A stretch of 64,000 nt of DNA. Origin: Bdellovibrionota bacterium (GTDB taxonomy: Bacteria > Bdellovibrionota_C > UBA2361 > JBIKWN01). The DNA is taken from NCBI GenBank assembly GCA_044356295.1, contig JBIKWN010000006.1, positions 15,902-79,901 on the forward strand, read 5' to 3'. Both the position numbers and the translations under genes were made by a program. Positions 4,255 to 8,014 of this stretch are shown here, piece by piece. Below the pieces are notes generated by a model that had not been told where the DNA came from, did not search any database, and saw only the letters and a list, made by a program, of their open reading frames with translations. How positions within the stretch are numbered: position 1 is the stretch's first letter; each line of letters opens with the position of its first letter.

Positions 4255-6102
4255 TTACGTTAATAATCGCAACGCCAATCCAGGTGATTGATTAGCTTGA
4301 GCGAGCACTGATGTTGCAACTTGCTGTGAAATTTTCAATCGCGTTGCCTCTGCAACTTCGCTACTGACATCACTATCCATAATTCTAGAATGAGCCTCTT
4401 TGTAGTTGATACTCGTCGACTGTACAACATTTATGACTGCTGCCGCGCGCGACATTGTTGCTCCAACTCGTCCTAGTGTTTGTGAGATGCTTTCAATTAA
4501 CGTACGAGAATTATCCAAAGACTGTCTAGCTCCTTGTTGAGTGAGAATATAATTTTTTGCAAGGTAGTTAGTTTGGGCCCCGTTTCCATAATTAAGATCA
4601 AGACGTCCACCTGTCAGCGAAGCCACTATTACATCTTTGACCCCATCACCAGTAAAGTCTGCAATTAAATTTGCATCCGATAATACCCCAGAGCTGTAGG
4701 CCCAAGTTTGAGAAATCTTAAATGTTCCATCGCCGTTACCTAAAATAATTCCTGCACCTGAAAAGCCTGTAATTAAGTAATCAGCAAAACCGTCATTATT
4801 AATATCCTGGGACGTCATGTTAGCTAATTGACCTATGCCAGAAAAATTTATAGTTGTGTTTGCTCTAAAAGTTCCATCGCCGTTTCCTCGTAGGAAATTT
4901 ACAGTTCCACCTCCTGGGCCAATTACAACAATGTCTAAATTGCCATCCCTATCAAAATCTTGGGCGACTGATGCACCAGATACACTATTAACAAAATAAG
5001 TGCTCATGGCTCGAAGTGTCCCGTTGGAATTCGCAAGAATAACTCCGATTTGATTGCTGGAATTATCAGAAAGTTGGATGTCATCTTTTCCATCGCCGTT
5101 AAAGTCACCAACTGAAAGGGCGACACCATTGAAGGATGTGGCATAGCTCACTGCTGCCCTAAATGTACCATTTCCATTTCCACTGAGAACACTAATTGCG
5201 TTACCACCTGATGCAACGAGGTCAGCTATTCCATCGCCGTTTATATCTCCAGTAGAAACTGACGTAACCGTAAATCCTTGCGCGTAAGTAACTGCCGAGG
5301 CAAAAGTATCATTGCCATTATTCAAAGCAATTCGAATATTTGTCGTATGATTGTTAACCCAATCCAGTTTACCATCACCATTTACATCAATGAGGCTTGC
5401 ACCAGAGGGACCAGGCGCACCATTAGCGAATATCGTCACACCACTACTAAAAGATCCATCACCGTTTGATAAGAATATCTGACCGTAGATACTTAATAGA
5501 TCAGCTCTTCCGTCGCGGTTGTAATCGATGGCGTTAAAACCTCGCTGATTCGCCATTGCTTGTGTACTTGTTCCTGTAAATGTTCCATCCCCTGCAGCTC
5601 CGTTGATTCCAGAACCTTGTAAATATAAAAGTGAATTATCAAGACCACTTCCGAATTGGAATCTTACCCCTTGGGAATCTACGGAACTTAATAATTTTAT
5701 GCCATTAAATGATGTGATCGAAACTATTCTGTTAAATTCTTCTGTAAGCCTATCAGACTCTTGCTGCATTGATTTTCGCTGCGACAATGAAAAAGATCCG
5801 TTTGCTGCTTGCTCAGCTAATTCAGCTTGGCGTTGTGCAATTTCTGACAACCCTCCAAGAGTCCCCTGAACAATATTGAGCATACTAACGCCATCGTTAA
5901 TATTACGTAGCCCCTGCGAAAAAATTCTTGTTGAAGCATTAAGCTCTAACGCGATAGCGAGTCCTGCTGCATCATCGGCTGCTTTATTAATTCTCTGCCC
6001 AGACGCAAGTCGTTCAGAGATCGAAGCAAGCTTATTCGAGCTTTGCTCAAGTCCCCGCTGCGCGGTTAAAGAACTGATATTACTGCCTAATGTTATAGCC
6101 AA
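4255..6102 (-). CDS. Flagellin-family protein with a central FG-GAP/VCBS repeat domain (7 repeats)
   Basis: Flagellin N-terminus (ERLASGQRINKAADDAAGLAI, RNINDGVSML, FNGIKLL) and C-terminus (SRIMDSDVSSEVAE, VLAQANQSPGLALRLL) flank seven D-x-[NDT]-x-D-G-x-x-D repeats; TTG start with GAGGAG upstream. Confidence 0.92.
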   Translation of the reverse strand: MAITLGSNISSLTAQRGLEQSSNKLASISERLASGQRINKAADDAAGLAIALELNASTRIFSQGLRNINDGVSMLNIVQGTLGGLSEIAQRQAELAEQAANGSFSLSQRKSMQQESDRLTEEFNRIVSITSFNGIKLLSSVDSQGVRFQFGSGLDNSLLYLQGSGINGAAGDGTFTGTSTQAMANQRGFNAIDYNRDGRADLLSIYGQIFLSNGDGSFSSGVTIFANGAPGPSGASLIDVNGDGKLDWVNNHTTNIRIALNNGNDTFASAVTYAQGFTVTSVSTGDINGDGIADLVASGGNAISVLSGNGNGTFRAAVSYATSFNGVALSVGDFNGDGKDDIQLSDNSSNQIGVILANSNGTLRAMSTYFVNSVSGASVAQDFDRDGNLDIVVIGPGGGTVNFLRGNGDGTFRANTTINFSGIGQLANMTSQDINNDGFADYLITGFSGAGIILGNGDGTFKISQTWAYSSGVLSDANLIADFTGDGVKDVIVASLTGGRLDLNYGNGAQTNYLAKNYILTQQGARQSLDNSRTLIESISQTLGRVGATMSRAAAVINVVQSTSINYKEAHSRIMDSDVSSEVAEATRLKISQQVATSVLAQANQSPGLALRLLT

Positions 6103-6127
6103 ACTTAAATGATACTCCTCATCTTCT

Positions 6128-6154
6128 TGATCGGCTTTTTTTGAATATTTCTAA
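6128..6154 (-). promoter_or_regulatory. Possible sigma-28 (FliA) promoter of the flagellin
   Basis: Minus strand reads TTAG-N15-GCCGATCA versus consensus TAAA-N15-GCCGATAA, just upstream of the RBS. Confidence 0.5.
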
Positions 6155-6320
6155 AATTTCTCTTTGTTTTTTTAGGAATAATTGAAAGGAAAATGTGCTA
6201 GTGTTTCGGTAAGTTATGAGGGATGCTTTAAAATTGAAGATATTATTTATGTTTTTTGCAATTTGCGGCTAACAAAAATTCGTACGACCACGGCCATAAA
6301 GTTAAGGGACGTCGAAACTC

Positions 6321-6402
6321 TTTTTGGTACAAGATAACTTTCAATCTGATTTAAGCTAATGAAGTACTATATAATCCAAGTTACCTTGTACCCATTATTT
6401 CT
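6321..6402. repeat. Palindromic repeat, copy A
   Basis: ggtacaagataactt (6326-6340) ... aagttaccttgtacc (6378-6392), 14/15 inverted match; related to copies at 6881 and 8218. Confidence 0.75.
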
Positions 6403-6420: not shown

Positions 6421-6837
6421 TTGACCATGCATAAATCTTTTCCTATCAAGTCTTTTTTGATACTTGGAGTTATTTCTCTATGCATATTTATTAATAATAT
6501 GGCTGACAGCTGCTTTGTTAAACTGAAATCCGCCGATAGTAAATTATCAGATGAGCTTAGTTATGAATTATTTGAATTATGGATGTCACCTCAATATGAA
6601 AATGTATCTGCAGAGAATCTTGTGAGAGAATTTCTTTCGAAATATAGCACCCCACAAGAAATTGCAGATCTGAATCCGGTATATAAATTATATCAAGAGA
6701 ATATTGCTCTTGGTATCAATGATGGTGATTGGGATATACTTGCGCGGCGCAGTAAACTTAATGAACTTAATGGACGGGAGTTAATAAACGCTGCAGTTAA
6801 GAAATTTCTGTTACAAAATGAGATAGCTTGTAAATAG
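6421..6837 (+). CDS. Hypothetical protein with N-terminal hydrophobic segment
   Basis: 138-aa ORF between two repeat copies; start may be the ATG at 6427. Confidence 0.55.
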   Translation: MTMHKSFPIKSFLILGVISLCIFINNMADSCFVKLKSADSKLSDELSYELFELWMSPQYENVSAENLVREFLSKYSTPQEIADLNPVYKLYQENIALGINDGDWDILARRSKLNELNGRELINAAVKKFLLQNEIACK

Positions 6838-6985: not shown

Positions 6986-7498
6986 TTATTTTTTGAGTGA
7001 ATTATGCAAATAAGAAGAAAAAGCTCTTTCAATAACTTCTGTTTCATCAATATTTTTTTCAATTGCACGACGTTTAATTTCGGCAAGTGTTGCAGGCTTT
7101 AATCTCCAATTAGTTCTGACTCGTCGTTCATTGACAGGAATAGATCGTTTGTCTGGTAACTCAATGTTCGCCCACCGCTTTAGATCTTTATAGGGCAATC
7201 CAGCGAGATCCGGACCAACATCTTTATTTTTTTTAATACATTCTAACACCAGGCTTAGTTTTTCTGGAATCTTATCCCAGTTTAGAAAAGATCGAGGGAA
7301 TCGAAGCATTGCCGCTGGTAGAACCTCTAACACTCTGGGTTCAATTTCTGTACCTATTTTGAGTGCTTCTAGAATATCGACTTTAATTGTAGGTAATGGT
7401 TTTACATCTTCAACTCCCAATAATCCTTTACCAACAAAAAATCCAAATATCCTTTCGGTTTTTTCGTCCCACTGATTGATATAATTATTTTTAGCCAT
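6986..7498 (-). CDS. Hypothetical protein with C-terminal ribbon-helix-helix-like segment; putative antitoxin/regulator
   Basis: C-terminus RVRTNWRLKPATLAEIKRRAIEKNIDETEVIERA resembles an RHH; lies 9 bp downstream of the nucleotidyltransferase-like gene. Confidence 0.55.
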   Translation of the reverse strand: MAKNNYINQWDEKTERIFGFFVGKGLLGVEDVKPLPTIKVDILEALKIGTEIEPRVLEVLPAAMLRFPRSFLNWDKIPEKLSLVLECIKKNKDVGPDLAGLPYKDLKRWANIELPDKRSIPVNERRVRTNWRLKPATLAEIKRRAIEKNIDETEVIERAFSSYLHNSLKK

Positions 7499-7507
7499 AC
7501 TTTTAAT

Positions 7508-8014
7508 CTATAGCTTTATAGTCTTTGTAATTGTGAAATAGGTAATGTCCCCACCATTGCTTATTATCTTGCTCGCTAAAACATCACCAAAAAGTTTTAA
7601 AGCATCACTAACGAGATGTTTATTTTTTTCTTTAGCCTTTATTGCTTTACTGGTAATCGCAGAAATAGGATCTAAGTGACTCACTTTTACCCAGGTTGAA
7701 TCGTAATACTGAATAAAATTAGAATCCTTTGGAATCCAGATCTCTGTACTGAGTTCATCAAAAGCTAAGCCATTTGATTTCAATACATCACGAAAAACTT
7801 GAGTCTCACCCCATTTTCCCTTTAGCAATGCATCAACATCTTTGGTATATGCCAACCGAATCTTCGAGCTGACTTCTTCATTCATCAGCAAGCTCATCTG
7901 TCCTAGGACATTAATCTCTATCTTATTATCCGACATTACAGAATCACCTAAATCTTCACGACGTAATCTGAGTGCTTCTTCAAGATCTTCTATGACTTTA
8001 TTTATTAATTTCAT
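7508..8014 (-). CDS. DUF6036-like (AbiEii-related) nucleotidyltransferase
   Basis: INVLGQMSLL ... YTKDVDALL (G/S motif plus T-x-D-x-D) and C-terminal TSKAIKAKEKN. Confidence 0.6.
   Translation of the reverse strand: MKLINKVIEDLEEALRLRREDLGDSVMSDNKIEINVLGQMSLLMNEEVSSKIRLAYTKDVDALLKGKWGETQVFRDVLKSNGLAFDELSTEIWIPKDSNFIQYYDSTWVKVSHLDPISAITSKAIKAKEKNKHLVSDALKLFGDVLASKIISNGGDITYFTITKTIKL

Follow-up and report, generated by a model that had tools for sequence, protein, structure and literature searches.

We analysed a window of 64,000 nucleotides from a Bdellovibrionota bacterium (GenBank assembly GCA_044356295.1, contig JBIKWN010000006.1, positions 15,902 to 79,901 of the forward strand), in which the minus strand at 4255–6102 encodes a 615-residue flagellin with a large repeat domain inserted between its two ends. 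No other long open reading frame (ORF) is present at this locus, and the N-terminus, MAITLGSNISSL, lines up with the MPITIGSNIASL of its paralogs in their alignment. A first-pass annotation had read the gene as genuine flagellin termini enclosing a complete seven-bladed FG-GAP (integrin-alpha-like) β-propeller, and both parts of that reading hold. Four Pfam families score above their own cut-offs, namely Flagellin_N (residues 7–140, 108.9 bits against a cut-off of 26.6), FG-GAP_3 (137.9 bits in seven stretches), FG-GAP (69.8 bits in five stretches) and Flagellin_C (residues 533–614, 52.5 bits against 23). The features of the gene and of its upstream region are the following.

4255–6102, minus strand: propeller flagellin coding sequence, 615 residues; TTG start codon 6100–6102, stop codon 4255–4257
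5608–6102, minus strand: N-terminal D0/D1, residues 1–165 (Flagellin_N, 2.7e-31; AlphaFold2 model; Foldseek filament matches)
4570–5601, minus strand: predicted seven-bladed FG-GAP / integrin-alpha-type β-propeller, residues 168–511
5572–5586, minus strand: extra GDGTF turn, residues 173–177, ahead of loop 1 (model strand 168–182)
5500–5526, minus strand: calcium (Ca) loop 1, DYNRDGRAD, residues 193–201
5362–5388, minus strand: Ca loop 2, DVNGDGKLD, residues 239–247
5221–5247, minus strand: Ca loop 3, DINGDGIAD, residues 286–294
5080–5106, minus strand: Ca loop 4, DFNGDGKDD, residues 333–341
4933–4959, minus strand: Ca loop 5, DFDRDGNLD, residues 382–390
4780–4806, minus strand: Ca loop 6, DINNDGFAD, residues 433–441
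4633–4659, minus strand: Ca loop 7, DFTGDGVKD, residues 482–490
4258–4539, minus strand: C-terminal D1/D0 helices, residues 522–615 (Flagellin_C, 6.2e-14; model helices 522–575 and 579–614)
6128–6154, minus strand: sigma-28-like element TTAG-N15-GCCGATCA, 26–52 nt upstream of the start codon
6115–6120, minus strand: Shine-Dalgarno sequence GAGGAG, 12 nt before the TTG, in a predicted hairpin loop that is not significant (z −1.06)

The seven Ca loops quoted in the first-pass annotation are thus all present, at residues 193, 239, 286, 333, 382, 433 and 482, with a period of 46–51 residues; the motif is complete in all seven blades, and the loop’s first Asp is invariant across 87 family sequences. 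The accompanying claim of a turn after every loop stands for loops 1 to 6, which are followed by a GNGDGTF-type turn, and falls for loop 7, blade 7 ending in YGNGAQT instead. The extra GDGTF turn reported before the first repeat is indeed found, an arrangement expected if an N-terminal strand closes the ring, and in the structural model this segment provides the outer strand missing from blade 7 in a velcro-type closure.

An AlphaFold2 model built on an alignment of 87 family members (mean predicted local distance difference test score 87.3, predicted template modelling score 0.79) places helices at residues 7–34, 45–100 and 106–129, a β-hairpin at 146–160, 27 strands between residues 168 and 511, and two C-terminal helices. 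As modelled, and in line with the seven FG-GAP_3 stretches, the middle part is a closed seven-bladed FG-GAP/VCBS propeller. The top Foldseek matches in the Protein Data Bank are flagellar filaments (9n59 at 8.7e-16, followed by 9gnz, 9au6 and 7sn4); the middle part retrieves the fungal N-acetylglucosamine (GlcNAc) lectins PAL, PVL and AAL-2 (5mb4 at 1.4e-10, 22–23% identity over about 370 columns) and, ranked after them, CRTAC1, ITFG2, BBS proteins and UmbA4. By sequence, the nearest solved propeller is PVL (4up4, 1.8e-9). A WD40 propeller can be ruled out, with no WD40 family among the seven Pfam families that match at E ≤ 1, and a TcdB_toxin_midN match (31.6 bits, Pfam) reflects repeat-level likeness rather than a toxin signal, TcB propellers being placed in the VCBS superfamily too in the portion of the Pereira and Lupas survey available to us (PMC8023676). 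The best NCBIfam models are flagellins, which reach about 147 bits within the first 170 residues; each of the 25 listed models scores under its own cut-off (the top one, lat_flg_LafA_2, at 147.5 bits against 365), and the window flagellin therefore belongs to no named flagellin subfamily.

The stretch containing the gene was also found in lake-water metagenome runs. In a run that belongs to a different study and year, a 2345-nt contig matches positions 4418–6400 with 0 differences and so links the promoter to the N-terminal helices, the complete propeller and the first part of the C-terminal helices. The parts of the gene left without cover in runs X3–X5 correspond to holes in low-depth contigs.

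Repertoire, conservation and distribution

The window flagellin was divided into three thirds (N-terminal, propeller, C-terminal), and these were compared with all stop-to-stop frames of at least 100 residues in the source genome (2.96 Mb in 128 contigs, 93.6% complete, with the window on contig C12). This genome holds 22 Flagellin_N matches, 21 of them above the cut-off, and encodes ten long propeller flagellins (573–628 residues, window gene included) plus two contig-end fragments, along with eight short flagellins of 269–305 residues. Exactly seven Ca-loop motifs are found in each of the ten long paralogs, and beyond the flagellin-like set described here the window-flagellin query retrieved no protein of the genome with such a propeller. 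Genes for export and assembly are present as well, namely flhA (864.7 bits), fliF (214.3), fliD (118.6), fliS (120.9), fliW (111.6) and csrA (88), and a separate FlgL-like gene adjoins csrA–fliW on contig C98.

Identity among the paralogs amounts to 48–67% in the N-terminal region (85% in one tandem pair), 28–55% in the C-terminal region (82% in that pair) and merely 28–38% in the propeller (37% in the pair). The two genes of the pair (C74:38084–42080; L104:4082–8081, minus strand) are 98–100% identical in nucleotide sequence from −190 to +120, a segment that spans promoter, leader and D0 and includes 98–100% identity over the first 40 codons; identity is 67–82% in the N-terminal D1 and 37–68% in the propeller, and reaches 97% in a 60-nt segment near the 3′ end that encodes the C-terminal D0. 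This profile marks the pair as a gene-conversion mosaic, in which homogenised gene ends surround an old, diverged cassette. Both the low identity of the paralog propellers and the homogenised ends of the tandem pair are new. In a tree of the D0/D1 cores, from which the truncated C120 paralog was omitted, nine long paralogs form one clade (support 96/93) and seven short flagellins another (96/89), with the eighth short flagellin (contig C93) on a long branch; core identity is 44–85% between long flagellins, 49–98% between short ones and 40–57% between the two groups.

Two members of the set differ from the rest. The blades of the paralog at C123:15831–17696 (plus strand) have a mean identity of 58% to one another (maximum 71%), against 27–36% in the other nine, and repeat DLNGDGILD almost unchanged, a uniformity that suggests recent intragenic repeat homogenisation or amplification. 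A 689-residue protein (C38:25622–27688; L103:7623–9689, minus strand), encoded directly downstream of two short flagellin genes and preceded by a TAAA-N15-GCCGATCT element, matches FG-GAP_3 in five stretches, Flagellin_N at a sub-threshold 24.2 bits and Flagellin_C not at all; this propeller protein may derive from a flagellin and have departed from the flagellin fold.

Entropy and consensus figures were taken from the 87-sequence family alignment. Column entropy is 1.47 bits in the N-terminal D0, 1.34 in the C-terminal D0 and 2.27 in the propeller, D0 being the most conserved part across the 87 homologs. Within the propeller, the Ca loops (1.20 bits, 0 inserted residues per sequence) and the turns between strands 3 and 4 (1.02 bits, 0.13 inserted residues) contrast with the segments running from strand 2 through the loop to strand 3 (2.75 bits, 10.4 inserted residues) and from strand 4 through the loop to strand 1 (2.93 bits, 2.8 inserted residues), into which nearly all propeller insertions fall. 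The propeller combines an invariant Ca-loop face with a hypervariable opposite face that takes up essentially all indels, a pattern that is also new.

In integrins, the A–B and C–D loops lie on one face of the propeller and the B–C and D–A′ loops form the ligand face. The chain of the window flagellin enters the propeller at a C–D-type turn (GDGTF, residues 173–177) and leaves it at residue 511, following strand C of blade 7, and both D1 links therefore lie on the Ca-loop face. Drawn from this strand register, from integrin topology and from the loop nomenclature of Pereira and Lupas, in which, in the portion available to us, the Ca motif is loop A–B (PMC8023676), the orientation would put the invariant Ca-loop face against the filament core and the variable face of 2–3 and 4–1 loops outward.

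A 95% identical variant of the window flagellin shares 583 of its 615 residues; the 32 changes are mostly conservative and comprise 5 in the 165 residues of the N-terminal region, 20 in the 360 of the propeller and 7 in the 90 of the C-terminal region. We dropped strain-level diversifying selection as an explanation, the changes not being concentrated in the propeller. At residue 244 of the variant (window 5371–5373) an Ala replaces the Gly of DxNGDG, so that loop 2 reads DVNGDAKLD, and one calcium loop may be dispensable.

Among the best 120 database matches, 86 are full-length proteins of 593–656 residues with Flagellin_N, FG-GAP and Flagellin_C, 35–43% identical to the window flagellin (the 95% variant excepted), and the remainder are propeller-only proteins. 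The sole homolog name that bears an organism is ‘VCBS repeat-containing protein [Bdellovibrionales bacterium]’, the others reading ‘flagellin’ or ‘FlgL’. A contig scan with patterns specific to the window protein, which says little on other phyla, found full-length relatives only in three metagenome-assembled genomes (MAGs) that are labelled Bdellovibrionales or Bdellovibrionota or are unlabelled. Across the phylum, with the best ten candidates per genome taken at a threshold of E ≤ 1e-55 that needs both parts of the protein, the fusion occurs in at least 46 of 124 genomes, at least 25 of 73 high-quality genomes and at least 34 of 64 genera, but in comparatively few genomes (at least 4 of 36) of the largest family, f8. 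The carriers are uncultured, presumably predatory Bdellovibrionota of lakes, in which the family is abundant.

Copy number is high in other genomes too. The 2.5-Mb genome G010 encodes 19 flagellin-like proteins (ten long, one stop-interrupted, five short, two mid-size and one FlgL-like), and G011 encodes 36, of which 18 are long, with tandem arrays of three or four long genes. The mid-size flagellins, 415–428 residues in length (G011, L151:310–2831, plus strand; G010, L152:294–1577, plus strand), carry an insert of about 180 residues without Pfam match between Flagellin_N and Flagellin_C. Two genomes of the same genus as the source, 62% and 86% complete, hold best counterparts with 89, 61, 60, 49 and 40–44% identity to the ten paralogs, the figure for the window gene being 40%. 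As far as such incomplete genomes can show, the repertoire therefore turns over.

With a sigma-28 −10 consensus of GCCGATAA, the element upstream of the window gene (TTAG at 6151–6154, 15 nt, then GCCGATCA at 6128–6135) matches in its −10 part at 7 of 8 positions, bearing out the sigma-28-like promoter of the first-pass annotation. In the source genome, a pattern composed after such elements had been seen occurs in 7 of the 20 flagellin-like genes, while among the 1880 background genes it occurs in 37 (about 2%). The flagellin-like matches are six of the ten long flagellins and the 689-residue C38 gene, with none of the eight short flagellins.

Relation to known flagellins and propellers

The first-pass annotation had also put the gene forward as an undescribed system, and this does not stand, the architecture being already catalogued as part of a large family. 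Fields et al. (2024, Nat Commun 15:9500, PMC11532411) clustered the AlphaFold models of 16,948 flagellins and arrived at 682 outer-domain clusters, of which cluster #55, called ‘WD40-repeats’, has 40 UniProt members; 16 rows combine Flagellin_N, Flagellin_C and FG-GAP_3 at 545–670 residues, all of them MAGs assigned to Deltaproteobacteria, Pseudomonadota, Alphaproteobacteria, SAR324 or Bradymonadales, and a Fuerstiella singleton stands in Supplementary Data 1 too. The same source takes cellular homologs of three clusters, WD40 included, to suggest co-option; in the portions available to us, the cluster is listed without function, paralog counts or conservation pattern. The window flagellin shares its architecture and size range and, compared by domain annotation and size, is to all appearances a member of cluster #55. 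The ‘WD40’ label is wrong, because no WD40 match is found here and FG-GAP/VCBS propellers form a supercluster apart from WD40 in the available portion of Pereira and Lupas (PMC8023676). Full-text literature searches, screened at title and abstract level, gave no paper on propeller flagellins besides Fields et al. among the papers listed.

Solved flagellar filaments (Azotobacter 9n59, Geovibrio 9au6, E. coli O157:H7 7sn4, Salmonella 9gnz/1ucu) have a D0/D1 core like that of the window flagellin (phmmer 1e-24 to 1e-35, Foldseek 1e-13 to 1e-16) and an outer domain likewise inserted between the N-terminal and the C-terminal part of D1. In the solved filaments this domain is of Ig-like, beta-folium or similarly small type, whereas that of the window flagellin is a propeller, and no β-propeller was found in the solved filaments among the structure and sequence search matches. 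The protein is a real, intact member of a catalogued flagellin family without published function rather than a new kind of system; were it to polymerise, it would give the first propeller-coated flagellar filaments, with an integrin-type seven-calcium scaffold displayed in thousands of copies on a rotating organelle.

To the integrin alpha head (9e8b, 3nid, 4irz), the window propeller has 12–17% sequence identity. Integrins carry Ca loops in blades 4–7 only, whereas here all seven blades have them; the integrin beta-subunit partner is without counterpart, and the setting is bacterial and polymer-embedded. The lectins PVL, PAL and AAL-2 (2bwr, 4up4, 5mb4, 4tqj) are, like the window propeller, seven-bladed VCBS-type propellers with Ca loops, PVL binding Ca in two or three of them against seven motif-complete loops here. 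PVL offers six GlcNAc sites per propeller (PMC4456360).

Among related lineages with many flagellin paralogs, Bdellovibrio bacteriovorus reportedly has six fliC genes whose products contribute to one filament; these six flagellins are said to be short and without outer domain, as compared with the eight short and ten propeller-bearing flagellins found here. In enzymatic flagellins, a functional globular domain replaces the hypervariable region and is displayed along the filament. The insert of the window flagellin is a non-catalytic repeat propeller, unlike the peptidase of flagellinolysin, and no peptidase or HEXXH domain was found in it with Pfam; flagellinolysin-type proteins are named in the available portion of Fields et al. 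as ‘flagella_HEXXH’, cluster #15 (PMC11532411).

Filament surface and competing explanations

We propose that the window protein is an accessory subunit of the flagellar filament. As in other flagellins, its D0/D1 helices would pass through the flagellar type III apparatus and assemble into the core of the filament, and the propeller, in place of the usual D2/D3 outer domains, would be stiffened by its seven DxNxDGxxD calcium loops. The Ca-loop/GNGDGTF face would lie against the core and the face of 2–3 and 4–1 loops, the ligand face of integrins, would point outward; differing deeply among some ten paralogs, this outward face could provide a repertoire of alternative filament surfaces. We regard a polymerising subunit with an outward variable propeller coat as probable. 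That such a coat, in addition, serves contact or recognition of particles, prey or surfaces rather than passive armour is a tentative reading to which we give somewhat less than even confidence. The data fit recognition and a passive, exchangeable coat about equally and we lean slightly to recognition; the characterised relatives of the fold, namely integrins, PVL-type lectins and UmbA4, are binders. An extended form of the idea, in which the 10–18 propeller flagellins of a genome make up a combinatorial recognition repertoire, with the integrin-like face of each paralog shown thousands of times per filament, the flagellum doubling as an exchangeable lectin/adhesin array for prey or particles and new specificities arising by cassette-like propeller divergence between conversion-matched gene ends, is speculative and in our estimate unlikely. 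Given the expansion to 10–18 genes per genome, the family probably matters for meeting surfaces, prey, phages or grazers, and its confident model, clear invariant scaffold and variable face make it a practical target for cryo-electron microscopy, display engineering and binding screens.

Several observations weigh against a recognition coat built from these subunits. Bdellovibrio flagella are membrane-sheathed, and if those of the present bacterium were sheathed likewise, the outward face would meet the sheath and not the environment. All five inspected relatives retain 4–7 short flagellins of about 275–325 residues, and the long ones are therefore never seen building a filament alone; the clade of long-flagellin cores, set apart from the short ones, could mean a different fate. 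Two propeller flagellins, C120:5614–7467 (plus strand) and, in G010, C14:25066–26964 (plus strand), hold a single in-frame TAA and would be either decaying copies or sequencing errors, so some copies of the family may be in decay. Outside the scaffold motifs, no residue exceeds 50% consensus in the 87 sequences. The promoter pattern, out of sample in two relatives, occurs in 3 of the 17 long and 1 of the 8 short genes, plus one mid-length gene, mostly at the first gene of a tandem array and once with a perfect GCCGATAA; the sigma-28-like element is real at the window gene and speaks weakly for a family rule, and we dropped it as a family trait or as proof of regulation on account of the 3 in 17. 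Finally, the GW motif of loop D–A′, which helps form the sugar pocket of PVL and tachylectin in the portion of PMC8023676 available to us, is found in none of the ten paralogs of the genome, the window flagellin included; across the family it is absent from 78 of the 87 members and occurs once in nine. This absence speaks against a PVL-like lectin as well as against a single ligand shared by all, and membership among the PVL-like GlcNAc lectins was dropped.

The hypervariable outward face without consensus pocket and the missing GW sugar motif equally suit a filament subunit whose propellers bind no ligand and form a rigid, Ca-stabilised sheath that thickens and stiffens the filament and varies to evade flagellotropic phages, grazers or antibodies. 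Such a passive coat shares the Pfam and model evidence with the recognition reading, and the turnover of the repertoire within the genus, with counterparts from 89% down to 40%, and the deeply diverged propeller cassettes between homogenised ends in the tandem pair point the same way; ordinary flagellins show the same diverged-cassette pattern in their hypervariable middles. Its geometry is also feasible. A flagellar filament has 11 protofilaments, a subunit repeat of about 52 Å along the protofilament and a rise of 4.7 Å per subunit, and a seven-bladed propeller is a disc about 45–50 Å wide and 25–30 Å thick. By arithmetic with these constants, protofilaments would be about 48 Å apart at a radius of 85 Å, so that a disc of about 48 Å would fit the lattice of about 52 × 48 Å and one disc per subunit could tile a closed shell at 70–100 Å, giving a filament of roughly 20–24 nm, no thicker than that of Salmonella. 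Against this, seven intact Ca loops and a 340-residue fold in 10–18 copies are costly for mere variation, for which short variable domains serve in other bacteria; relatives of the fold with known function (integrins, PVL/PAL/AAL-2, UmbA4) are mostly binders; and strain-level changes are conservative and not focused on the propeller (20 in its 360 residues, 7 in the 90 of the C-terminal region). We hold the ligand-free coat to be possible, if on the doubtful side.

As in the second option of the first-pass annotation, the flagellin termini might serve merely as an export signal and chaperone handle for type III secretion of a soluble or tip-located propeller adhesin, lectin or effector. The short flagellins retained by every inspected genome could build the filament alone, the long-flagellin cores have a clade of their own, no flagellar genes adjoin the window gene or the C74 pair, the long paralogs with a scanned neighbourhood, and the degenerate C38 relative shows that the scaffold can drift from flagellin function. 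A flagellar export signal needs the N-terminal segment only, yet the whole of D0 and D1 is retained at both ends, with D0 the most conserved part, in a predicted fold that is that of assembled flagellins, and the near identity of the tandem-pair ends (98–100% and 97%) fits a polymerisation constraint; secretion without polymerisation is less likely because of these retained domains and homogenised ends, and we consider it quite improbable. A minor junction or cap-proximal component, as a variant of the FlgL hook–filament junction protein, is suggested by homologs named ‘flagellin-like hook-associated protein FlgL’ and by a weak TIGR02550 match; its 65.5 bits are far under the cut-off of 127.2 and under the approximately 147 bits of the flagellin models, the genome has its separate FlgL-like gene beside csrA–fliW, and 10–18 copies per genome are unfit for a junction protein, all of which makes this role very unlikely. 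That the gene is a flagellin/FG-GAP assembly chimera or dead might be suspected from a metagenome-type assembly of 128 contigs and from the stop codons in some paralogs. It is practically refuted by the independent contig that spans 4418–6400 without difference, the at least 86 full-length homologs, the same architecture in at least 46 of 124 genomes, the open frame and the confident model.

Gene surroundings, leaders and further loci

As the first-pass annotation had stated, the window holds no other flagellar gene: the 68 further ORFs of at least 90 residues show no flagellar family match at Pfam E ≤ 1e-5. This lack of flagellar neighbours means little, because the machinery and the other flagellins are encoded elsewhere in the genome. 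The neighbours comprise a FIST protein, a convergent hybrid histidine kinase, three small ORFs and housekeeping genes. The small ORFs, at 6421–6837 (plus strand), 6986–7498 (minus strand) and 7508–8014 (minus strand), encode 138–170 residues beside the flagellin promoter and have no Pfam match at E ≤ 0.1.

The last 45 nt or so before the start codon were compared between the paralogs (6103–6125, minus strand, in the window). Four long paralogs (both genes of the C74 pair, C128 and C8) have in common a leader that ends in a UGCAA-AAGGAA-UUGCA hairpin about 7 nt before the AUG, and in the window gene the Shine-Dalgarno GGAG likewise sits in a small hairpin loop; these hairpins fold no better than shuffled sequences (z about −1). 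With csrA adjoining fliW on contig C98, the propeller flagellins may be under CsrA–FliW control.

In addition to flhA, two further FHIPEP (FlhA/SctV-like) genes are encoded in the genome, in a set of three regions on contigs C100, C18 and C94 (L129:9717–11879, L130:9097–10956 and L131:3033–8158, all minus strand). One of the extra FHIPEP genes adjoins Tad-like T2SSF/T2SSE genes and a HEAT-repeat protein, the other accompanies an SctJ-like gene, two sigma factors and a TPR protein, and the third locus contains SctJ-like, FliN-like and two FHA/YscD-like genes; by their gene content, these loci could represent dispersed components of a type III-like system that is not flagellar.

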